From positions 1 to 36,493 of the IMG/VR virus record IMGVR_UViG_2563366937_000005: DNA of 36,493 nucleotides. One strand, 5' to 3'. Of this stretch, positions 1 through 18,382 are shown one piece after another. The DNA is from a virus (Duplodnaviria > Heunggongvirae > Uroviricota > Caudoviricetes). A program made the translations under genes and the position numbers. The notes beneath the pieces were generated by a model. It did not search any database. It saw only the letters and a list, made by a program, of their open reading frames with translations, and was not told where the DNA came from. How positions within the stretch are numbered: position 1 is the first letter of the stretch; each line of letters opens with the position of its first letter.

Positions 1-1254
1 ATGCTGGAACAAATGGGCATTGCCGCGAAGCAAGCCTCGTATAAATTAGCGCAACTCTCCAGCCGCGAAAAAAATCGTGTGCTGGAAAAGATCGCCGATG
101 AACTGGAAGCACAAAGCGAAAGCATCCTCAACGCTAACGCCCAGGATGTTGCTGACGCGCGTGCCAATGGCCTTAGCGAAGCGATGCTTGACCGTCTGGC
201 ACTGACGCCCGCGCGACTGAAAGGCATTGCCGATGATGTGCGTCAGGTGTGTAATCTCGCCGATCCGGTGGGGCAGGTGATTGATGGTGGTGTGCTGGAT
301 AGCGGTTTGCGTCTGGAGCGTCGTCGCGTGCCGTTGGGGGTGATTGGCGTAATTTATGAAGCGCGCCCGAACGTGACGGTTGATGTCGCTTCCCTGTGCC
401 TGAAAACCGGTAACGCGGTGATCCTGCGCGGTGGTAAAGAAACCTGTCGCACCAACGCTGCAACGGTGGCGGTGATTCAGGACGCCCTGCAATCCTGCGG
501 TTTACCGGCAGGTGCTGTACAGGCGATTGATAATCCGGATCGCGCGTTGGTCAGTGAAATGCTACGCATGGATAAATACATCGACATGCTGATCCCTCGC
601 GGCGGGGCTGGTTTGCATAAACTGTGCCGCGAACAGTCGACAATTCCGGTGATCACGGGCGGTATTGGCGTCTGCCATATTTACGTTGATGAAAGTGCAG
701 AGATCGCTGAAGCCCTGAAAGTAATCGTCAACGCGAAAACCCAGCGCCCGAGTACGTGTAATACGGTAGAAACGTTGCTGGTGAATAAAAACATCGCTGA
801 TAGCTTCCTGCCTGCATTAAGCAAGCAAATGGCGGAAAGTGGCGTGACATTACACGCTGATGCAGTTGCATTAGCGCAGTTGCAAGCAGGCCCCGCGAAG
901 GCGGTGGCTGTTAAAGCGGAAGAGTACGACGATGAGTTTCTGTCATTAGATTTGAACGTCAAAATCGTCAGCGATCTGGACGATGCCATCGCGCATATTC
1001 GTGAACACGGCACGCAACACTCTGATGCGATCCTGACCCGCGATATGCGCAACGCCCAGCGTTTTGTTAACGAAGTGGATTCCTCCGCTGTTTACGTTAA
1101 CGCCTCTACGCGTTTTACCGACGGCGGCCAGTTTGGTCTGGGGGCGGAAGTCGCGGTAAGCACACAAAAACTCCACGCGCGCGGCCCAATGGGGCTGGAA
1201 GCACTGACCACTTACAAGTGGATCGGCATTGGTGATTACACCGTTCGTGCGTAA
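1..1254 (+). CDS. proA: gamma-glutamyl phosphate reductase ProA (host chromosomal gene, complete)
   Basis: 417-aa ORF beginning with ATG at base 1; translation recognisable from memory as enterobacterial ProA; sits immediately upstream of thrW as in the E. coli/Shigella chromosome. Antisense ORFs inside it are treated as spurious. Confidence 0.9.
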
Positions 1255-1262
1255 ATAAAACC

Positions 1263-1330
1263 GGGTGATGCAAAAGTAGCCGTTTGATTCACAAGGCCAT
1301 TGACGCATCGCCCGGTTAGTTTTAACCTTG
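1263..1330 (+). promoter_or_regulatory. proA-thrW intergenic hairpin (11-bp stem ccgggtgatgc/gcatcgcccgg with about 33-nt loop, then T-rich tail) with overlapping TTGACG -35-like hexamer; possible proA terminator and thrW promoter
   Basis: Inverted repeat read directly at about 1270-1316; TTGACG at 1300-1305 and TAACCT 17 nt downstream, about 50 nt before the tRNA. No experimental support. Confidence 0.3.
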
Positions 1331-1377
1331 TCCACCGTGATTCACGTTCGTGAACATGTCCTTTCAGGGCCGATATA

Positions 1378-1453
1378 GCTCAGTTGGTAGAGCAGCGCAT
1401 TCGTAATGCGAAGGTCGTAGGTTCGACTCCTATTATCGGCACCATTAAAATCA
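1378..1453 (+). tRNA. thrW: tRNA-Thr (anticodon CGT), thrW; 3' end carries the prophage attL core
   Basis: 76-nt sequence GCCGATATAGCTCAGTTGGTAGAGCAGCGCATTCGTAATGCGAAGGTCGTAGGTTCGACTCCTATTATCGGCACCA folds as a cloverleaf: 7-bp acceptor stem GCCGATA/TATCGGC, anticodon loop TTCGTAA, T-loop TTCGACT, 3' CCA encoded. The integrase gene stops 6 nt downstream. Confidence 0.9.
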
Positions 1454-1458
1454 ATAAG

Positions 1459-2622
1459 TTACACATCATTAGTACCTTCCTTATTTTTTGACTGGGACAA
1501 ATTTGGGACCGATGGGTTCAGGATCGAGTCTATTTGCCGTGCGTGTTCGGTAAGGTGATTAGGTGCAAGGTGAGCATATCGACGAACCATTTCGATAGAC
1601 TCCCAGCCTCCCATTTCCTGTAACACTGACAAAGGGACTCCGGCTTGAACCAGCCAACTTGCCCAGGTGTGTCTCAAGTCGTGAAATCTGAAATCATCAA
1701 TACCAGCCCGTCTCAGCGCCGCTTTCCAGGCTGTGTTTGCGTCATACCGCATCTTCCTTACTGTTGGCGCTTTCGTTCCGTCTGGTTTGGTACAGCTTTC
1801 CTTGTACACAAATACCCAACGGTGATGATTCCCGATTTGTTTTTTCAATACGCGACATGCAGTATCATTCAGCGCAACGCCAATTGCGCGGTTTGATTTA
1901 CTCTCTTCCGGGTTTATCCATGCCACCCGGCGCTGCATATCTATTTGTTGCCATTCAAGGTTGATGATGTTCGAGCGTCTTAAGCCTGTTGCCAGTGCAA
2001 ATTCAACAACAGACTTTAATGGCTCCGGACATTCATCAATCAGCCTTTGTGCTTCATGGGGCTCCAGCCAGCGGATCCGTTTATTCTTTGGTTGAGGCAC
2101 TTTAATAATTGGTGCCTTATCCAGCATTTTCCATTCACGCTCTGCGGCTCTTAGTAGGGCCTTTATAAATGAAAGATGCGTAGCCTTCGTTGCAACGGAC
2201 GCTGGTTTTGGCGTGTATTCTGGAACAGGTTTCCCTTTTTTTCTGCATGCTTCTGCCCTGAGTTTCCAGTTTTCCTCATGACGCCGGTTCGTCATTTTCT
2301 GCATTGCTGAATAAATTTTTGATTCAGTAATGTCTCTTAGTTGCATTCCTGCGAAATGTTGAAGCCAGAATCCGATCCGGCTTTTGTCATCGTCCAGTGA
2401 TTTTTTATGTGCTTTCTCTTCAAGCCACCTGACACAAGCTTCCTCGAACGTTATATCAGGTATTTCACCAAGTTTGCTGACCCGCCATGCTTCAGCCTTT
2501 AGCTTGTCATGGAGTTCTGTCGCCTGCCTTTTGTCCTTTGTTCCAAGAGACTGTTTAAATCTTTTACCGTTCGGCAATGTGAAACTGGCGTACCATATTT
2601 CACCTCTGCGGAAGAGTGACAT
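1459..2622 (-). CDS. int: Tyrosine site-specific integrase, P22 Int-like (thrW-specific)
   Basis: 387-aa ORF adjacent and convergent to thrW; C-terminal catalytic region with the R...HDLRHT...Y pattern ([25 protein letters not shown]...RRYAHL). P22-family integrases are known to use thrW as attB. Confidence 0.9.
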
Positions 2623-2849
2623 TTTCTTTCCTCTGTTATGCCATCACCCGCGCTCACCAGGACAGTATGCAGCGGAGACTGAAGAGCCGCAATGCAGGCT
2701 TGTCGTGTTGTGAGGTAAGGAGATTTATTCTTAGTGGGATCTTTGCGTGTTGCCTGAAGACGCCCTGTGCGTATCCAGTTAATGGCAGTCGGTCTGGATA
2801 TCTTGAGAAAATGACAGGCCTCATCGAGTGTGAGGCTGTATGGCTCCAT
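2499..2849 (-). CDS. xis: Excisionase (Xis, AlpA/HTH_17-type DNA-binding protein)
   Basis: Start chosen at the internal Met ([33 protein letters not shown]...), giving 116 aa; the 3' end overlaps the int start; the start ATG overlaps the upstream gene stop (TAATG). Confidence 0.7.
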
Positions 2850-3154
2850 TATTTCACCTCTTGTTGTGACATTGTTGAAAAATGGATACCAGCTCGTTGC
2901 TGCCAGACGATCCAACCGAGAGTCATATCCCATGCCATGTATTCGTTATCGCCGTTTTTTGCTCTCCGACGATCTACTAAGTCACCGAAACGCTTTTCCA
3001 TGAATAATTCATAAGCTTCGCGTTCATCTGGTTCTACTTCCAGAGATAGGAGTGCGATTTCATAAGCACGGCGCTCAATATCGTCTCGCACGTCAAGGCT
3101 GCTGATACGCTCTTTAATTTCTTTAATCAGTTCTTTGTCGGTAAAAGTGGTCAT
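2849..3154 (-). CDS. Hypothetical early protein (101 aa; YfdT-like by size and position)
   Basis: ORF in the leftward early operon, translationally coupled to xis (1-nt stop/start overlap); acidic, helical-looking sequence. Homology assigned from memory only. Confidence 0.5.
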   Translation of the reverse strand: MTTFTDKELIKEIKERISSLDVRDDIERRAYEIALLSLEVEPDEREAYELFMEKRFGDLVDRRRAKNGDNEYMAWDMTLGWIVWQQRAGIHFSTMSQQEVK

Positions 3155-3516: not shown

Positions 3517-4043
3517 TTGCGTAACTCCGATAACTCGTTAAAACGTTCCATAAACATCCCGTAGGCATGGCCCGGTGCCAGTGGAATCACGTTGAACATC
3601 TCTGTTGCCGGGATGCCTTCCAGTACAGGCCAGAAAGAGCCATCATCAAGCCCGAGATCGCGGCGTTCGGTTGCCAGCATGATGAGATCGGCATATTTCA
3701 CAGGCGTGCTCATAACCGGGGGTAACCCGTATTTCTCACGGATTACGGCGTCTATTTTTTCTTCCATCCGTTTATAGTCAGGAAGAAGGCGTTTCAGTGG
3801 CGCGGGGATGTCCTGACAATAAGCTTCTGTTGCATCATGCATTAACGCTTCAAAAGCAAATTCCTGCGGTACCAGCTGGCTGCAAAGCACCGCATGTTGG
3901 GCGACGCTGTAGAAGTGTGAAAGATGTCCTGCAAAGCGACAGATATTTGAAAGGGAAACCGCGATATCGTTAATATCGATGTTGTCTTTATTTATCCTGT
4001 CATAATAAAAATGCTTCCCGGAAAAAGTTTTAATAAATGACAT
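3507..4043 (-). CDS. yfdR: HD-domain phosphohydrolase (YfdR-like putative 5'-deoxynucleotidase)
   Basis: Start placed at the internal ATG (MSFIKTFSG...), preceded by GGAG with about a 6-nt spacer, giving 178 aa; contains the H...HD...D metal-binding pattern (FAGHLSHF...ALMHDATEAY). Confidence 0.65.
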   Translation of the reverse strand: MSFIKTFSGKHFYYDRINKDNIDINDIAVSLSNICRFAGHLSHFYSVAQHAVLCSQLVPQEFAFEALMHDATEAYCQDIPAPLKRLLPDYKRMEEKIDAVIREKYGLPPVMSTPVKYADLIMLATERRDLGLDDGSFWPVLEGIPATEMFNVIPLAPGHAYGMFMERFNELSELRKCA

Positions 4044-4137
4044 TTTGTTCTCCACGTTATATGCGCTGCACCGCGCTGAAATTTGGTTAAAGAAAAACCT
4101 CGCCATCAGGCGAATATTGAGTCAATTACGTTTCCAT

Positions 4138-4160
4138 AAATGCCCCCGCAGGGGCATTTG
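4138..4160. terminator. Perfect 7-bp GC-rich hairpin (atgcccc-cgca-ggggcat) between the yfdQ-like and yfdR-like genes; possible attenuator or RNA processing site
   Basis: Inverted repeat read directly; no strong U-tract on either strand, so not a canonical intrinsic terminator. Confidence 0.3.
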
Positions 4161-4171
4161 CAGTAATGAAA

Positions 4172-4996
4172 TCAGGCGGTGAAAGTACCAATAAAGGTTT
4201 CTACTTTGCTGTCTTTGAACTTCTCAACAAGCAGATCACGAAATTCGTTAGCCATTTCCTCCTGCACTGCTTCCAGCTGAATAATGCGTAGTATCAGTAC
4301 AGGACGATCGCCAGTGATAATGCTGAGGCGTAATTTAAACGGACGTTCTTTCAGACCTTCAAACGGAACGCATTTAAATTCAAATGCCACTGGCATAATG
4401 TCTTTGGTCTTCGCTTCGACAGACTCCATCAGGGAGCGTTTGCCGCTGAAGTCATTATCTTCAAAATCAGCGGTCTGGTTCGCTTCAATTGTGATTTTAC
4501 GGATCGCCGCAGCCGCTTTGGTTGCCTGAATGGCGTCACCATTAGCATCAAAGCCCACAAGGTAGTCGGCCCAGTCTTCAATCCATTCTGCCAGTGACTT
4601 CTGGGAGTTACGCTCGCCGTTAACAGACAACAGGGCAGAGAACGGTGCTGTCTTTTTCAGTTTGAGAGTGGCGGTGTTATCTGCGTGACCTGGTTCATCA
4701 ATAGTACCCAGGTTAAGCACACTGACGGCTCGCATATTATCGGCATCGATAAAGCAGCGGGTGCCTTCATCTGCAAGATCTTTAGAATAACGGGTAAAGT
4801 CATCGATGCTGGCAGTGGAAAGCGCACCACGGAAACGGAAGCGATTTAAATTAAATTTTTCCAGATCATGAATGCGGAAATTCTCAGGCAATGCCACAGC
4901 ATCGGCACCAATCTTACTGATAATTTCATTAACACCCTGAGCAGAAATAAGGGCATGGATTTGATTAATTGCGGTTGCGTCTAAGTTCTGAGACAT
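4172..4996 (-). CDS. yfdQ: YfdQ-like protein (DUF2303 family), function unknown
   Basis: 274-aa ORF; length and sequence character match my recollection of the CPS-53 YfdQ family; not verified by search. Confidence 0.6.
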
Positions 4997-10546: not shown

Positions 10547-10932
10547 AGCTGATCCTGCCTTTTCCGCCCAGCGTGAACACGTACTGGCGACACCCCAACA
10601 AAGGGGCGTTTGCTGGTAAGAGCCTGATAAACGCGGTGGGGCGAAAATTCCAGAGCGCAGCGTGCGCAGCAATAGTTGAGCAGTTACGTCGTCTGCCGAA
10701 ACCAACGTCGGCACCTGCTTCAGTGGAGATCGTGTTGTTTCCTCCGGATAACCGGATCCGCGATCTGGACAACTATAACAAGGCGCTGTTTGACGCCCTG
10801 ACCCACGCGGGTGTGTGGGAAGACGACAGTCAGGTGAAAAGAATGCTGGTGGAGTGGGGACCGGTTATCCCGGAAGGGAAGGTCGAGATCACTATCAGTA
10901 AGTACGAGAAAACGGCGGGTGCAGCCGCCTGA
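10543..10932 (+). CDS. rusA: RusA-family Holliday junction resolvase
   Basis: 129 aa; conserved RusA pattern DLDNYNKALFDALTHAGVWEDDSQV (compare E. coli RusA [25 protein letters not shown]); ATGA-coupled to the upstream gene. Confidence 0.8.
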   Translation: MKLILPFPPSVNTYWRHPNKGAFAGKSLINAVGRKFQSAACAAIVEQLRRLPKPTSAPASVEIVLFPPDNRIRDLDNYNKALFDALTHAGVWEDDSQVKRMLVEWGPVIPEGKVEITISKYEKTAGAAA

Positions 10933-10951
10933 TCAAGAGGAGAAACGAAGT

Positions 10952-11749
10952 ATGAATAATCTGATGGTCATTGATGGTATTGAAGTTCGTCGTGATGCTT
11001 ATGGTCGTTACAGCCTGAACGATCTGCACAGGGCTGCCGGTTCTCTGGATAAGCATAAGCCTGCATTCTGGCTCCGCAATGAGCAAACTGAACGTTTAAT
11101 AAGCGAGTTGCAGATTTGCAACTCGGTCAATATAGAGCCAGTTAACGTTATTCGTGGCGGAAATAACCAGGGGACGTATGTCTGCAAAGAACTGGTGTAT
11201 GCCTATGCAATGTGGATCAGCCCGTCATTCCATCTGAAGGTGATCCGTACTTTCGACATGGTAACCAGCACACCGGAAAAATTATCCGGACAGGCTGCTG
11301 ACAAGATGCAGGCTGGCGTGATTCTGCTGGACTTTATGCGCAGGGAGTTAAACCTGTCTAACTCTTCAGTGCTTGGTGCCTGTCAGAAACTCCAGGAGGC
11401 TGTTGGCTTACCGAATCTGGCACCGCGCTATGCCATTGATGCTCCAGCTGATGCACACGATGGCTCAAGTCGCCCGACACTGTCACTGAGTGCACTGCTG
11501 AAACAGTATGGTATCCGCCTGACGGCTAATCAGGCATATCACCAGATGGTGAAGCTGGGGATCGTCGAGCAGCGCGAACGATACAGCCGTACCGCGATTA
11601 ACAACATCAAAAAATTCTGGTCGCTGACAGCGAAAGGCTGCATGTTCGGCAAGAACATCACCAGTCCCGCAAATCCGCGCGAGACGCAGCCGCATTTCTT
11701 CGAATCCCGATTCCCTGAGCTGTTAAAGCTGCTCGATACCGTTCATTGA
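10952..11749 (+). CDS. KilA-N domain protein with C-terminal extension
   Basis: Start at the internal ATG (MNNLMVIDGIEVRRDAYGRYSLNDLHRAAG...), preceded by AGAGGAG; N-terminal KilA-N-like pattern (...RYSLNDLH...KPAFWLRNEQT...). Confidence 0.65.
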   Translation: MNNLMVIDGIEVRRDAYGRYSLNDLHRAAGSLDKHKPAFWLRNEQTERLISELQICNSVNIEPVNVIRGGNNQGTYVCKELVYAYAMWISPSFHLKVIRTFDMVTSTPEKLSGQAADKMQAGVILLDFMRRELNLSNSSVLGACQKLQEAVGLPNLAPRYAIDAPADAHDGSSRPTLSLSALLKQYGIRLTANQAYHQMVKLGIVEQRERYSRTAINNIKKFWSLTAKGCMFGKNITSPANPRETQPHFFESRFPELLKLLDTVH

Positions 11750-12763: not shown

Positions 12764-13108
12764 ATGCGTGATATGTATGAAGTTTTAGACCGCTGGGGAG
12801 CGTGGGCTGCAGCAGATAACAGTGGTGTGGACTGGCAGCCGATAGCAGCAGGCTTTAAGGGGCTTTTACCTCATGGTAAAAAAATACGCCTTCAGTGTGA
12901 TGATGATGAAGGCATCATGATAGACGGCTGTGTTGCCCGCTTGTGTAAGTATAAACCAGACGAATATGAGCTGATCATTGCTCACTTCGTTATAGGTATT
13001 TCACTGCGTTCTATTGCGAAGAGACGCAGATGCTCAGATGGAACAATCCGGAAGCAATTGCAGACTGCGTTAGGTTTCATTAATGGGGTTATGTACATGC
13101 TCAAGTAA
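12764..13108 (+). CDS. Late-gene antiterminator Q (QuuD-like)
   Basis: Start at ATG 12764 (GGAG plus 7-nt spacer); MRDMYEVLDRWGAWAA...IAAGFKGL...CDDDEGIMIDGCVARL...CSDGTIRKQLQTALGFINGVM parallels DLP12 QuuD (VLERWGAWAA...IAAGFKGL...CCDDDAMIICGCMARL...CSDGYIGKRLQKAEGIIEGM, from memory). Confidence 0.75.
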   Translation: MRDMYEVLDRWGAWAAADNSGVDWQPIAAGFKGLLPHGKKIRLQCDDDEGIMIDGCVARLCKYKPDEYELIIAHFVIGISLRSIAKRRRCSDGTIRKQLQTALGFINGVMYMLK

Positions 13109-14327
13109 TATTTGGCATTAATTTAAATAAAATACCGATGATGCCTATGAATGTAGGCATCCATGCTAGTGATAATAAACTGTCAAGCACCTTATGACAA
13201 AAATCCTCATTGTCATTTAATTTTTTAATAGCCTCTTCTAAGCTCTCTTTAAGATCGCTGGTGTCATCCTTTATTCTATATCTTAATTGTCCAAAAAGTA
13301 TTTCTTTAGAGTGTGAAATACGAGCGAGTTGTTTTTTTTGTGACACAATCATTGCAGATGTTATTATTGCTGTGATAATCAATCCAATTAAAGCAATAAT
13401 CCAATCAGTTTTTGTTGTTAATTTGAAAATAGCAATTGAACCAGCTAGTGAAATAGGTATTGCAAGAGCTTTGTTAGAAATTTCTGAAATTATTTTTGAC
13501 AGTTTTTCTGAGTAATCGAGTTCAGCATCAACAACTTCTTTCCTTGCTTTATGAAAAGAAAATGCCGACATATAAGCAGCTAAGTTGTTCGTATAAAGTT
13601 CGCATATGAAATCCCACTTGTTAATTAACTCGACAAAGGAATTTCCATTTTTATTAACATACTCAATAACTGTGTTTCTGAAAGTGTTAATCTTTTCAAT
13701 GTGATGGGCATCAGTAGTAGCTTCACTACTTACTAATGTTTTAACTAACTGAGTATTTACTGTTTTATCATTAAAAATTTCTTCTGTAATATTTGTTTCA
13801 ATTACAGCAGAAGAAGATTTAGACTCTGAGTTTAAAATAAAGACTAAACGATAAAATGTACCTTTGCTATCTTTTTTTATATCATGGAAATGAGCAAGCA
13901 TGGAAAGAGCATTGATTAGCTCACAAATGTCCTCAATTTTTTGGATATAAGAAGGTTTTGGTGTTTCTAATGAATAGAAATCATCCTCTATAATATAGAA
14001 ATACTCTGGCATTATGCCTTTCTTGAGCGTGTTTATTTTTACAAACTCGTTTTTATTTTTATAAAAACGATTCGCACTTCCTTGTGAAATTTTAAACGAG
14101 TATGTAAGAAAATTTCCCTTTTCAGGAAAGTCTTCATAATCATAAATTAAATGACCATCCACCTCTATTTCGTCAGCTGTACCAGCTTGAAAAGTAGGGT
14201 TCAAAATTCTTTTGAACAATGATTTTACGTCTGCATTATAAGCTATACGCGCAGAAAACTTAGCCCCGTCAAAATGAGGATAGCTTGATAATCTATACAG
14301 ATTAACTATTATACTAAAATCATTCAT
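13101..14327 (-). CDS. Hypothetical 408-aa protein with two C-terminal transmembrane helices (second gene of the AT-rich cassette; candidate membrane effector)
   Basis: ATG at 14327 overlaps the upstream gene stop (ATGA); about 285-aa soluble N-terminal region with no motif I recognise; hydrophobic helices LAIPISLAGSIAIFKL...WIIALIGLIITAIITSAMIV and LLSLAWMPTFIGIIGILFKLM; 3' end overlaps the convergent Q stop by 8 nt; strongly AT-rich. Confidence 0.6.
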   Translation of the reverse strand: MNDFSIIVNLYRLSSYPHFDGAKFSARIAYNADVKSLFKRILNPTFQAGTADEIEVDGHLIYDYEDFPEKGNFLTYSFKISQGSANRFYKNKNEFVKINTLKKGIMPEYFYIIEDDFYSLETPKPSYIQKIEDICELINALSMLAHFHDIKKDSKGTFYRLVFILNSESKSSSAVIETNITEEIFNDKTVNTQLVKTLVSSEATTDAHHIEKINTFRNTVIEYVNKNGNSFVELINKWDFICELYTNNLAAYMSAFSFHKARKEVVDAELDYSEKLSKIISEISNKALAIPISLAGSIAIFKLTTKTDWIIALIGLIITAIITSAMIVSQKKQLARISHSKEILFGQLRYRIKDDTSDLKESLEEAIKKLNDNEDFCHKVLDSLLSLAWMPTFIGIIGILFKLMPNIT

Positions 14328-15472
14328 TCTTTATCTTCTTCATTACTCGGGTTATCAGTTTCTTTCAACGCTCTTCTTATCTTAGTTAATGCTTCAACAG
14401 GCAAATTATTAAATGTTAGGCTTTGGTTTTCGTCATCATAATATATTTTAGCATCAGTTGTGACACCGAGTAAATCCTTGTCGAAGTGAAAGCTCAATGA
14501 TGGGGTTTTATATATCACATTGCGGATTTTATCTAAGGAGTTTTTATTGATTACGAACTCTGATGGGATTCTGACTTCCTCACTATTGAGGTGTTTCATT
14601 AATTTATCAACAAGTTCTGTTTTTTCTTCCTCTTTTAAATCGGACATATGGCCTGAAGCAAGCGATTCGATATCAGAAAGCCTTGCAGAGTGCTCGTTGT
14701 CAAATTGCTTTTCTAAGTATTTGATAACATCATTTCTAAATGACTCTGCTTGATTTTTTAAAAGAGGTTCTTTCTTAAAGAAACGCCTTATTTCATCTGG
14801 TAACTTACGGGTTGCACCTGCTGAAGCAATCCCCTTGTCACATCCTAATGCTGCTATAAAATATGCTGCCGCTGACTGTCCCGTAGTTTTGCTTATAAAG
14901 CTTAGATAACTTAAGTCTGTTTTTTTTAAGTCATCTGCTTTTTGGTATTCTTCATAATATCTGAAATTTATTTTTGCTGCTTGGTTAATATTGCCAAGTT
15001 CTAAGTGAATCATTTCCTCTGGCTCTAAATTTTCACTAATAGTTACGCCATTAGTTTTTTTGATCATTGTAACCAATAGATAACGGAAACCAGATAAAAT
15101 ATAATCAGTAAAAACAACATATCCTCCAGAAGCCCAAATCTGCTCTTGAGCAGATTTATACATTTGTTTCATAACTTCCTTCGATAATTCAATGAAATCA
15201 CTTGAAACAGATTGTTGAACTAAAGAGTATTTATGAAATAGTTCTGGTATAGGGCCTTGCTTTGTTTTATTTTTAATAAAAACACCATAATGCGCTGAGT
15301 TCCCTTTTGAACCATACAAATCAATAACACCGTCTACTAATTTTTTTACTATATCATTTGTTTTATCTAGTTCTGTATCACGAAGATTGTATGGTTTGGA
15401 GTGATCGAAGTCTTTATTAGATTCTTTTAAGAGCTCATGAACGATTACGTGGCGTATGCTTACTTTGCTCAT
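14324..15472 (-). CDS. NdpA/YejK-like nucleoid-associated protein homologue (NA37 family) (first gene of the AT-rich cassette)
   Basis: Start probably at the second ATG ([14 protein letters not shown], compare YejK MSLDINQIALHQL); the track ORF begins 18 nt upstream at 15490. Similarity to YejK along the whole length, e.g. [22 protein letters not shown] vs [36 protein letters not shown] vs [32 protein letters not shown] vs RYLTFLKGRVGRKVADFF, C-terminal [18 protein letters not shown] vs LTIKGTPPNLRDQLQRR (YejK from memory). Confidence 0.6.
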   Translation of the reverse strand: [382 protein letters not shown]

Positions 15473-15506
15473 TTTTTTGGTCAATTCCATGCGGTTAAGC
15501 TAACAA

Positions 15507-15556
15507 TTGTAAAGAGCATAATAAATTACTAACGCGTACGCAAAAACTATCATAAT
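15507..15556 (+). promoter_or_regulatory. Candidate late promoter (P_R'-like) upstream of the lysis cassette; the same interval probably also holds the divergent promoter of the minus-strand cassette
   Basis: -35-like TTACTA (15526-15531), 16-nt spacer, -10-like TATCAT (15548-15553) / CATAAT (15551-15556); followed about 35 nt downstream by an intrinsic terminator hairpin. Hexamer assignment is tentative. Confidence 0.3.
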
Positions 15557-15588
15557 CTGTTAAGAGTGGTTACTTCGCCACACAGCTT

Positions 15589-15620
15589 AAACCCGCGTCG
15601 AGCGGGTTTTGTCGTTTCTG
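15589..15620 (+). terminator. tR'-like intrinsic terminator between the candidate late promoter and the holin gene (expected target of Q antitermination)
   Basis: Stem aaacccgc/gcgggttt with 5-nt loop gtcga, followed by a TGTCGTTTCT U-rich tract. Confidence 0.4.
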
Positions 15621-15761
15621 GGGCTGGGGATTCGTTGGTTCTGGCCTATTCCGCAGTTATCCATTGGTTCGGCTTCTTTGACGTTTCCGCTTCTGATTTG
15701 CGGTACATGATGTTCCCTCAATTTGCACCTGCTGTATCAGCGAGGTGAGAGATAACTACAA

Positions 15762-16088
15762 ATGCCTCATAACCCAAATACCTGGTTGGAGTTGGTCCAG
15801 AGCTGGTGGCGTGGAGACACACCGTTGGGCGCAGTGATTATGTCGATTGTTATGGCTGGCTTGCGCATTGCATATTTTGGCGGTGGTGGGGGCTGGAAAC
15901 GAAAAACGCTCGAGATTTTGCTCTGTGGTGCTCTGACGCTGACTTTTGCATCCGCTCTTGAGTATGTCGGATGGCCTAAATCTCTTTCTGTTGCCATTGG
16001 TGGTGGCGTTGGGTTGATCGGTGTCGATGCTATTCGTGGGGCTGCAATGAGAGTAATCGGTAATAAGTTTGGTGGTTCTAAGGAGTAA
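15762..16088 (+). CDS. Holin (lambda S-like class I topology)
   Basis: 108 aa, three hydrophobic segments, Gly-rich turn (YFGGGGGWKRK), charged C-terminus; immediately upstream of the endolysin. Confidence 0.6.
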   Translation: MPHNPNTWLELVQSWWRGDTPLGAVIMSIVMAGLRIAYFGGGGGWKRKTLEILLCGALTLTFASALEYVGWPKSLSVAIGGGVGLIGVDAIRGAAMRVIGNKFGGSKE

Positions 16089-16568: not shown

Positions 16569-16944
16569 GCTGGTTATCGCTGCATTCTTCTTTACTGTCA
16601 TCGGTTCTTTCATCTGGTCTGCCAACCACTACTACAGCAAATATCAGCACGAAAAGAAACGTGCTGATGAGGCTGTACAAAATGTTGAATCTGCAACAGC
16701 CATTACCCGTAACGTCCTGCAATCACTGCAAATCGTCAATACAGTTATAGAGGTTAACCAGCATGCAAAACAGCAGATCGCACTGGAGTCACAGAGAACC
16801 CAGGAAGATATCAAAGTGGCTGTTGCGGATGATGATTGTGCTTCACGTCCTGTGCCTGCTGCCGCTGCTGACCGGTTGCGGAAATTCGCGAACGGTTTAC
16901 GTGAGCGCTCCGGTGGCACCACTGCCAGCCAGCCTGACTTCTGA
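16552..16944 (+). CDS. Rz-like inner-membrane spanin (i-spanin)
   Basis: 130 aa; N-terminal TM helix (LVIAAFFFTVIGSFIWS), then coiled-coil-like region; start overlaps the endolysin end. Confidence 0.6.
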   Translation: MKLSYKLVIAAFFFTVIGSFIWSANHYYSKYQHEKKRADEAVQNVESATAITRNVLQSLQIVNTVIEVNQHAKQQIALESQRTQEDIKVAVADDDCASRPVPAAAADRLRKFANGLRERSGGTTASQPDF

Positions 16945-17101
16945 TACTCCTGTACCGTTTATACCCAATCCGCTGACGTATGGTACCAGTCTGGAGTTGA
17001 ATGTTGCTCTATTGTCAGCCTTGGGACAATGTAATTTTGATAAAACTGGAATCAGAAAGATTGAATCACGGCGCGCTATTTTGCATTCGAAAGACAAATA
17101 G
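16829..17101 (+). CDS. Rz1-like outer-membrane lipoprotein spanin (o-spanin), overlapping Rz in the +1 frame
   Basis: Lipoprotein signal peptide with lipobox (MMIVLHVLCLLPLLTG|C), Pro-rich mature region; starts inside Rz and extends past it (overlapped rather than embedded). Start codon choice uncertain. Confidence 0.45.
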   Translation: MMIVLHVLCLLPLLTGCGNSRTVYVSAPVAPLPASLTSDTPVPFIPNPLTYGTSLELNVALLSALGQCNFDKTGIRKIESRRAILHSKDK

Positions 17102-17466
17102 CTCGAGTTATATTTTTCATTATCAGTGCGAATGCGCCTAATAAAGCTGTGTATTATGATAATTTTATAAAACTTATGGGCTTAAATTCAGACGCCAGCG
17201 TTTTTATAGTGTAATGTAGCAGCTTACATAAAATATGCATCGTGATTAACTATTAGTCCAACCTTTTGGACCAATATGAAAGTGGAAGTTTGTACAAATC
17301 GTTTGTAGATGATTAAACATGTGTCTAGTAGAGCTAGTCATGAACAGGTTTATTACGTATCATTTTGTTTAGATTATCGAGAGTACAACTAGTAGAGCAG
17401 CTAATCTTTAGATAGTGCCAGTGATGTTCACTTACGATAAACTAACCTTTTCATTCAGTGGAGGTT

Positions 17467-17904
17467 ATGATGTGGCATACATTACTTAACTGGCCTTGGG
17501 GAACTGTGTGGTCAGCTGTATCGGCTTTAGGTTCAATTGTAACTGTTACATTAGGTTTTTGGGCAATGAATGTTTGGCGGCGACAGGAGGCTCTGAAGGC
17601 CAAAATGGCTCTGAAAATGGCAGTGGCTGATTATTCAAATGCATTATCACAGCTACCTTTATCTCTTAGTCGTAATGTTCGTATTGAAAAAAGGGCCGAG
17701 CTACGAGAGTTAAGCCATAAATTAAATGCTATTAATAATGCTTTTTTGATATGCGAACATATGTTGGAAAAATACCCACGTGTAAACAGCGGTTGTCGTT
17801 CTTTATCTGTTGCCCACAAAGAATATATTAGAATGAGAGATAATAGTATTCAGGCGAAATATATTTGTCATAATATTCTTTCAGAACAGTTTGTATTCAA
17901 ATGA
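17467..17904 (+). CDS. Hypothetical single-pass membrane protein (about 145 aa) in an AT-rich moron between the lysis and packaging modules
   Basis: GGAGG directly upstream of tandem ATGs (the track ORF starts at GTG 17458); N-terminal TM helix (WGTVWSAVSALGSIVTVTLGFWAM); preceded by a 356-bp AT-rich non-coding region. Confidence 0.45.
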   Translation: MMWHTLLNWPWGTVWSAVSALGSIVTVTLGFWAMNVWRRQEALKAKMALKMAVADYSNALSQLPLSLSRNVRIEKRAELRELSHKLNAINNAFLICEHMLEKYPRVNSGCRSLSVAHKEYIRMRDNSIQAKYICHNILSEQFVFK

Positions 17905-18031
17905 AAATGAACGATTGGTATTTACTTGCCGTTTATTCATTGGATTGAAAAGTCTATTTAGCAAACCGTGTTAAAGCGGTTTCTGATTGCAGTTATGGTT
18001 AGATATTTAACGAAAACTACAGGGATAATAG

Positions 18032-18382
18032 ATGCCTCCACGAACCCCAAAAGCCTGCCGCGTTCGCGGCTGCCGCCATACCACGACTGACCCATCAGGC
18101 TACTGCGAAAGCCACAAAAGCGAAGGCTGGAAGCAATACAAGTCTGGCCAGTCCCGTCATCAGCGCGGTTATGGTTCGAAGTGGGACGTTATCCGCGCGC
18201 GTGTGCTGAAGCGTGACAAAGGCCTGTGCCAGTTGTGCCTGCGTGCCGGTGTGGTGCGCGAGGCGAAAACCGTTGACCACATCATCCCTAAAGCGCATGG
18301 CGGCACCGATGCAGACAGTAACCTACAGAGTCTGTGCTGGCCGTGTCATAAGGCGAAGACGGCCCGTGAACGGATTAAGTAA
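18032..18382 (+). CDS. HNH endonuclease (terminase-associated, HK97 gp74-like)
   Basis: 116 aa; N-terminal Cys cluster (CRVRGCRH...YCESH) and HNH motif (DHIIPKAHGGTDADSNLQSLCWPCH); immediately upstream of the terminase small subunit. Confidence 0.8.
   Translation: MPPRTPKACRVRGCRHTTTDPSGYCESHKSEGWKQYKSGQSRHQRGYGSKWDVIRARVLKRDKGLCQLCLRAGVVREAKTVDHIIPKAHGGTDADSNLQSLCWPCHKAKTARERIK

Follow-up and report, generated by a model that had tools for sequence, protein, structure and literature searches.

A prophage-borne gene pair for a YejK-like nucleoid protein and a membrane protein as a probable divergent relative of the anti-phage system DS-1

Introduction

Anti-phage defence by gene pairs that join a YejK-like nucleoid protein to an effector has been described under the names PANGU and DS-1, and the present work concerns a pair of this kind that is carried by a prophage. 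It lies in a stretch of 36,493 nucleotides (nt) from a virus of the Caudoviricetes (IMG/VR record IMGVR_UViG_2563366937_000005, positions 1 to 36,493), which is referred to in its full length as the window. The pair consists of gene A, encoding a protein of the NA37 (YejK/NdpA) family, and gene B, encoding a membrane protein, and is termed the cassette. The original prediction, made from the sequence alone, had presented it as a candidate undescribed defence or exclusion system.

PANGU systems are bicistronic operons in which the genes for a YejK-like nucleoid protein and for an effector lie less than 40 bp apart (bioRxiv, April 2026; 10.64898/2026.04.06.716658). In type II systems the effector, Pag2B, is composed of an N-terminal soluble 'DMK' domain, described as an acidic DNA mimic, and a C-terminal transmembrane (TM) domain. 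Both genes of the system PANGU-Ecu were required, and neither PANGU gene was toxic alone. Infected cultures stalled without lysis, an abortive-infection-like behaviour, and growth stopped at high multiplicity of infection (MOI). PANGU-Ecu blocked T4 and Bas34, not T1 or T5, and T4 escaped through mutations in denA, which encodes EndoII. A fusion of the sensor Pag2A to green fluorescent protein was bound to the nucleoid before infection and diffuse after it, and Pag2A was found to bind the N-terminal domain of Pag2B with a dissociation constant of 19 nM (10.64898/2026.04.06.716658).

DS-1 was recovered as system D390 in the DefensePredictor study (bioRxiv, January 2025, then Science, 2026; PMC13092281). 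It consists of WP_000355468.1 (391 amino acids, aa; zinc ribbon and NA37), here DS-1A, followed by WP_000150292.1 (404 aa), here DS-1B. When tested in MG1655 from its native promoter, it reduced plating by a factor of 10^7.6 for Bas1, 10^2.7 for Bas26, 10^1.7 for Bas3 and T3, and about 10^1 for T5 and T7 (Table S7 of that study), and the YejK domain was listed as newly validated in defence; no mechanism was proposed for DS-1 (PMC13092281). Table S10 of the same study contains WP_016159279.1 as a 'Predicted novel defense gene' with a log-odds score of 13.05, slightly above the 12.7-12.9 obtained for DS-1B (PMC13092281). Protein B of the window is exactly WP_016159279.1.

Results

Our analysis revealed that proteins A and B are distant homologues of the two proteins of the validated DS-1, the sequence match being at the level of the family and not at that of the equivalog. 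NCBIfam holds two DS-1 models, NF053868 (DS1_1_antiphage, 'nucleoid-associated anti-phage protein') and NF053869 (DS1_2_antiphage, 'anti-phage protein'). Protein A matches the former with an E-value of 2.6e-28 and 99.1 bits against a cutoff of 330, and protein B the latter with an E-value of 1.5e-28 and 100 bits against a cutoff of 315, over positions 31-336 of the 337 in the profile and residues 86-397 of B. In BLASTP comparisons A and DS-1A were 24% identical (E 9e-11), B and DS-1B 22% (E 8e-11), and alignment of a B-family profile to DS-1B with hhalign gave a probability of 96.6% over 219 columns. A match to an already named system, which the original prediction had listed as a finding that would speak against it, was therefore obtained for the family but not for the equivalog.

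The two systems also agree in their layout. In both, an NA37/YejK-like gene comes first and a gene for a protein of about 400 aa with C-terminal hydrophobic helices second, and the genes are tightly coupled, with a 2-nt gap in DS-1 and a start-stop overlap in the window. Both are AT-rich cargo of E. coli prophages, placed antisense in the same slot with the second gene running over the end of Q. The hydrophobic segments are weaker in DS-1B than in window B. Furthermore, DS-1B matched sampled members of the family at E-values of 1e-12 to 1e-17, while window B matched the same proteins at 1e-31 to 1e-113, a contrast that makes DS-1B a divergent offshoot and places window B in the main cross-phylum body of the family. 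The Prokaryotic Genome Annotation Pipeline names true DS-1 an 'anti-phage protein', and the window type is annotated as hypothetical.

Regarding its anatomy, the cassette consists of two minus-strand open reading frames (ORFs), 14324..15490 for A (388 aa) and 13101..14327 for B (408 aa), with a 4-nt ATGA start-stop overlap at 14324-14327. The TGA of gene B (13101-13103) falls 8 nt inside Q, the TAA of which is at 13106-13108. The G+C content of 13101-15490 is 0.321 compared with 0.522 elsewhere in the window; in sliding windows it ranges over 0.29-0.38 within the cassette and 0.47-0.59 in the flanks, with abrupt transitions near 12900 and 15600. Since long ORFs are improbable by chance in such AT-rich DNA and both have many homologues, the cassette is confirmed as a genuine feature. 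The translational coupling, the overlap with the convergent Q gene and the AT-richness ascribed to separate horizontal acquisition were thus all correctly predicted, and the gene pair is a horizontally acquired, translationally coupled cassette, antisense with respect to the late genes and placed at a slot whose cargo varies. The start of gene A is most likely at 15472 (Met7, giving 382 aa) and not at 15490, because homologues begin 3-4 residues before a conserved V(I/V)VHEL.KE motif, in line with Met7; the RefSeq annotation of the identical gene in E. coli GPEC1405 also gives 382 aa.

Protein A is a full-length NA37 protein, which bears out its assignment as a YejK/NdpA homologue. Pfam PF04245 was matched above the gathering score (E 2.3e-50) over residues 16-364 of the 388-aa ORF, and residues 5-366 were colinear with residues 7-331 of the YejK structure 9be2_A (E 4e-15). 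Against the NCBIfam YejK equivalog NF001557, however, it scored 134.8 bits with a cutoff of 341, and because this is far under the cutoff protein A is not an orthologue of the housekeeping YejK. It differs from the latter also in being encoded by a prophage, in a gene of 32% G+C, and in its obligate pairing with a membrane protein. It has no Cys-rich N-terminal extension and starts 3-4 residues ahead of the NA37 core.

For protein B, a Pfam search returned sub-threshold noise only and no domain, and a sequence search of the PDB gave no match, while phrog_5023 was matched with an E-value of 7.5e-139. Kyte-Doolittle hydropathy supports the two C-terminal TM helices that had been proposed for this 408-aa product, a strong one at about 307-328 (peak 2.76) and a second at about 384-405 (peak 1.94), and there is a weaker amphipathic stretch at 287-305. 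A confident AlphaFold2 model built with 31 homologues (mean predicted local distance difference test score 85.8, predicted template modelling score 0.64) contains an alpha/beta domain at about 1-180 followed by long helices at 209-227, 238-287, 289-302, 306-351, 358-388 and 390-403. A topology with the N-terminus inside, a helical hairpin and a C-terminal TM helix can be inferred, and would fit the K/R-rich segment at 329-345. The most conserved motif, N247-V265 (NNLAAYMSAFSFHKARKEV), belongs to the helical region. Conserved positions just before or inside the membrane region are W238, Y252, F256, F258, K286, P291, G315, Q330/Q333, W389 and P391, and among these K286, P291, G315, Q333, W389 and P391, inside or beside that region, are invariant. 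This conservation suggests that the membrane part is functional and more than a passive anchor.

The family is broad and its pairing consistent. In complete E. coli genomes the full-length window cassette was present in 30 of 5,426, with both ORFs intact and 99.4-100% conserved, while DS-1 was present in 106 and always adjoined a Q gene. A word-indexed search for B homologues recovered 59 clusters, all from Enterobacterales, and one metagenomic outlier, the pair remaining intact down to 38% identity. A profile search of 1.84 billion representatives extended this to 1,007 clusters (defined at 50% identity) at E<=1e-3 and 573 at <=1e-10, nearly all of 400-430 aa and matched over their full length. 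In a genome scan, B was found at 27 loci, ranging from Gammaproteobacteria (Xenorhabdus, Pectobacterium, Halomonas, Pseudomonas, Pseudoalteromonas, Vibrio and Rheinheimera) to metagenome-assembled genomes (MAGs) assigned to Desulfomicrobium (Desulfobacterota), Candidatus Moraniibacteriota (candidate phyla radiation, CPR) and Methanosarcina. At 26 of these 27 loci, B is immediately preceded by a co-oriented NA37 ORF, with a spacing of -26 to +32 nt between the two; at the remaining locus the contig extended only 325 bp upstream.

Prophages of Edwardsiella and Pectobacterium also carry the pair, which there too converges on Q and points away from the lysis genes, and it was further observed in one metagenome contig and in Klebsiella phage P7641, the only isolated phage in which tblastn found the pair. 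Across 29 pairs the identities of A and B co-varied (r = 0.92; Mantel 0 of 2000), which indicates joint inheritance of the two genes with no exchange of partners; this statistic does not distinguish linkage from physical co-evolution. The Rheinheimera pair adjoins a type I restriction-modification (R-M) system, and the Moraniibacteriota pair adjoins a serine recombinase and a type IV secretion system coupling protein.

Some further observations concern individual carriers. The NA37 and B pairs on the Methanosarcina sp. and Candidatus Moraniibacteriota MAG contigs are intact and 33-34% identical to window B; they reflect either wide horizontal transfer or binning contamination. IS1 interrupts the window-type cassette in one E. 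coli genome and DS-1 in another (the two genomes being NZ_CP059947.1 and NZ_OZ547033.1), which may be a sign that these systems carry a fitness cost or are being inactivated. In the Pectobacterium carotovorum prophage an extra cargo gene of the Endonuclease_NS family (3689-4552) separates the NA37 gene from the lysis genes, and the Edwardsiella piscicida prophage that carries the pair also has a BrnT/BrnA toxin-antitoxin in its early region (10792-11308).

As regards its position, the cassette had been assigned to the lambdoid site occupied by stx and nmpC, an assignment that did not hold. Alignment of seven loci from the first cassette gene to the holin showed that their common sequence begins at about 15523 of the window (…CTAACGCGTACGCAAAAA…), includes a G+C-rich hairpin with a T-run (tR'-like) at 15589-15609 and continues to the holin start. 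The block at about 15523-15620, to which we attribute putative promoter and terminator functions, matches phages SfII, SfIV, cdtI, phiP27 and Stx2a phages, which carry different Q alleles. In Stx phage 1720a-02 the slot is empty, with Q directly abutting the shared block, and stx is found about 2 kb further downstream. Because the cassette is located between the Q stop and this block, and antisense, it lies upstream of the presumed late promoter/terminator and does not occupy the site of stx and nmpC. Among isolated phages, a megablast search with the cassette as query matched the conserved late-promoter block only. An odd 38-nt match of 97% to the same block occurs in Elizabethkingia phage EKP1.

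A comparison of related prophages, as suggested in the original prediction, showed alternative cargo between Q and the holin. In E. coli P19_598 the slot contains the validated DS-1 pair, antisense and with its second gene overlapping Q by 21 nt; in E. coli OkiPb01675 a complete Kiwa (KwaA E 1.9e-83, KwaB E 2.3e-150); in E. coli NA3664 TIR-TM (E 1.7e-57); in E. coli CH4804 PDC-S20, a KAP NTPase (E 4e-175); and in Shigella phage SfII PDC-M53A/B. Other E. coli prophages have genes at this place known by annotation name only, TIGR04255 and DUF6731 with a methyltransferase. In every case the cargo is antisense and either reaches just up to the Q stop or runs over it, and every occupant tested was a known or candidate defence system. 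Since the same flanks hold DS-1, Kiwa, TIR-TM, PDC-S20 and PDC-M53, the slot is a defence hotspot of SfII/P27-like lambdoid prophages, and since the cargo varies and the slot can be empty, this cargo is dispensable for the phage. Kiwa resembles the window pair as a two-gene antisense cassette with a membrane component (KwaA, with KwaB as its partner) in the identical slot of sister prophages, but has no sequence relationship to A or B and is analogous cargo only. No account of this hotspot between Q and the late promoter was found in the literature searched, which does not prove its absence. The coordinates of the cassette and its borders are given in Table 1.

Table 1. Cassette genes and bordering features, in window coordinates.
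Feature	Position	Strand	Basis and remarks
Q antiterminator gene, 119 aa	12749..13108	+	PF06530 Phage_antitermQ, E 5e-44; forms the left conserved border of the slot; the GPEC1405 locus, which is identical, has it annotated as Q
Gene B, membrane protein, putative effector, 408 aa	13101..14327	-	WP_016159279.1; DS-1B homology; hydropathy
Gene A, NA37/YejK-like, putative sensor, 382 aa from Met7	14324..15472	-	Pfam NA37; longest ORF to 15490
Cargo-specific AT-rich leader upstream of gene A, presumed cassette promoter region	15473..15522	-	Seven-locus alignment; homology absent among loci with different cargo
Late-promoter-like region, hairpin with T-run and holin leader, forming the right conserved border	15523..15761	+	Terminator scan and alignment; common to all cargo variants and to an empty site in an Stx2 phage
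Lambda-family holin, first gene of the lysis cassette	15762..16088	+	ORF; annotation in the identical locus

Elsewhere in the window, a tRNA-Thr(CGT) at 1369-1444 adjoins the prophage, with the integrase next. Over the cassette, the window and E. coli GPEC1405 are 100% identical, but elsewhere the two are not colinear: the tRNA-Thr offset is different, and an antisense OB-fold gene of the GPEC1405 tail region is absent from the window (regions concerned, 1-3000 and about 28000-31000), which shows mosaicism among these thrW prophages. A second AT-rich island at 16901-18100 (G+C 0.39), between Rz/Rz1 and the HNH/terminase genes, may be another cargo (moron) site. Within it, the ORF 17458-17904 (+) encodes a protein of 145-148 aa that has a hydrophobic N-terminus and matched nothing in Pfam or PADLOC.

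Discussion

The comparisons above indicate that the window pair very probably serves in defence, with a sensor that binds nucleic acid and a partner in the membrane, a conclusion drawn from its sequence and from analogy. More specifically, we consider it probable that the cassette is a prophage-borne two-gene anti-phage system of the class that joins a YejK-like nucleoid protein to a membrane effector, being a divergent relative of DS-1 with the architecture of type II PANGU. With respect to the latter, the likeness lies in the bicistronic arrangement, which pairs a YejK-like nucleoid protein with an effector composed of a soluble N-terminal and a C-terminal TM domain, as well as in the occurrence in E. 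coli, the interphylum distribution and the linkage to R-M and other defence genes. Type I PANGU systems, composed of Pag1A and the toxSAS GRel Pag1B, are similar in that a YejK-like sensor leaves the degraded nucleoid and activates its partner by binding; their effector, however, is a soluble alarmone synthetase and not a membrane protein, and B has no toxSAS similarity. The defence part of the original prediction has therefore been strengthened, while its claim of novelty fails. It had held that no defence system based on an NA37 protein was described, whereas DS-1 has been validated experimentally and type II PANGU, of the same architecture, comes with mechanistic data; following this work of 2025-2026, and with WP_016159279.1 already listed among predicted defence genes, the cassette can no longer be called undescribed.

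Regarding the mode of action, the sensor steps are carried over from the PANGU preprint by homology of architecture. Protein A would bind the host nucleoid without sequence specificity, and protein B would be anchored in the inner membrane by its C-terminal helices and expose an N-terminal part of about 285 residues to the cytoplasm. An incoming lytic phage that degrades or perturbs the chromosome would release A, which would then bind the cytoplasmic part of B and activate it. Active B might compromise the membrane or otherwise arrest the cell, so that the infection aborts and the lysogen population, together with the prophage, is protected. For the window pair, we infer its activity, the phages that it would block, its membrane topology and the action of B. 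From the antisense placement of the cassette against Q one may also speculate that read-through from the early operon during induction damps its expression, which could silence the defence and thereby leave the lytic cycle of the prophage itself unharmed.

Several points weigh against this explanation. The identity of the window pair to DS-1 is only 19-25%, both proteins reach about one third of the DS-1 equivalog cutoffs, and the N-terminal zinc ribbon of DS-1A (NinF-like, residues 3-26) is absent from window A. Given the low identity and the sub-cutoff scores, the function and phage spectrum of DS-1 are not simply transferable to the window pair. To type II PANGU it is likened by architecture and not by sequence, and the acidic, DNA-mimicking character of Pag2B is at best weak in the composition of B (residues 1-286: D+E 14.0%, K+R 11.5%, net charge -7, isoelectric point 5.6). 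Moreover, the mode of action of Pag2B was left unexplained by the PANGU authors (10.64898/2026.04.06.716658), and the overall validation rate of DefensePredictor was 45% (PMC13092281). A Foldseek search with the model of B gave nothing significant, the best hits being CorA in the PDB (E 0.29) and one in BFVD at E 5e-3 with a TM-score of 0.15. PADLOC v2 (2023) returned nothing useful for either protein (best match DrmC, E 0.059), and strict and relaxed promoter scans upstream of the cassette found only weak sigma-70 matches, none of them convincing.

It is also worth considering how far the members of this class differ from one another. PANGU-Ecu blocks T4, while the rows for DS-1 list Bas1, Bas3, Bas26, T3, T5 and T7 and not T4, so phage spectra differ within the class, and the window-type effector could again differ from both DS-1 and PANGU-Ecu in its trigger and phage spectrum. 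E. coli strain UPEC85 carries the window cassette, which is not evidence that PANGU-Ecu is the window pair; should the two prove identical, the pair could already be known. Going beyond the preferred reading, it may be that the slot is an undescribed, conserved lambdoid defence hotspot extending across E. coli, Shigella, Klebsiella, Edwardsiella and Pectobacterium, and that the effector forms a channel or pore in the membrane whose gating depends on the integrity of the nucleoid. The channel or pore part leans on a weak CorA/ClyA-like topology, and we put the two parts forward jointly as a tentative proposal that is probably not correct as a whole.

Prophage membrane proteins commonly serve as exclusion factors, and direct superinfection exclusion, in which B would tether A at the inner membrane and A would bind the incoming DNA or block its entry, circularisation or replication while the cell survives, is accordingly the first alternative. 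It would account for the reduction of Bas1 plating by DS-1 (10^7.6, with no plaques), and it agrees with A belonging to a DNA-binding family and B being a membrane protein; the PANGU authors themselves allow for a move of the nucleoid protein 'possibly to the cell membrane' (10.64898/2026.04.06.716658). However, cultures with type II PANGU stopped growing at high MOI when exclusion would have let them grow normally, and Pag2A was located on the nucleoid prior to infection and diffuse thereafter, while T4 escaped by losing an endonuclease that acts on host DNA. By analogy, the growth stop, the relocation and the denA escape argue that damage to the host genome is sensed and not that incoming DNA is captured, and we thus believe that exclusion is unlikely to be what the window pair does.

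Even less probable, in our opinion, is that a xenogeneic nucleoid protein and its membrane partner serve the prophage or the host outside defence, in DNA organisation, tethering of DNA to the membrane, silencing or modulation of topoisomerases as reported for YejK, a reading that the original prediction had also raised. The colinearity of A with the housekeeping protein over its full length would be expected in that case, and nearly half of the YejK-like proteins sit in operons of unassigned role (10.64898/2026.04.06.716658). On the other hand, the score of A is far under the YejK equivalog cutoff, the closest tested relatives are defence systems, and non-enterobacterial copies adjoin R-M genes or lie on mobile elements. 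In sister prophages the same slot is empty or holds recognised defence systems, which speaks for dispensable cargo. An essential lytic or structural role was rejected on the same ground, the slot being variable and able to stand empty, and the cassette is likewise not an invariant core with essential lytic function, as had been considered in the original prediction. Least probable of all is a selfish or inactive passenger, be it an addiction module of the toxin-antitoxin kind, by which the prophage would be stabilised, or a decaying remnant that no longer functions in this strain. The combination of a membrane and a soluble protein does resemble some toxin-antitoxin pairs, the IS1 interruptions of both cassette types hint at a cost and no strong promoter was found, but neither PANGU gene is toxic alone, and the ORFs, intact in the 30 E. 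coli genomes, throughout 59 clusters with identities as low as 38% and in much more distant homologues, indicate purifying selection on both genes.

We therefore return to the cassette as a probable defence system related to DS-1. It leaves the current picture of bacterial immunity unchanged, and its remaining value lies in the effector mechanism, in the comparison with DS-1 and in the slot as a defence hotspot. Defence based on YejK-like nucleoid proteins is a very recent discovery, of which the cassette is a divergent natural variant from the main cross-phylum branch, and as a second E. coli allele it allows phage spectra and triggers to be compared with those of DS-1. The conserved residues in and around the membrane region of B offer targets for mutagenesis. 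Finally, the slot between Q and the late promoter can be mined for further defence genes.

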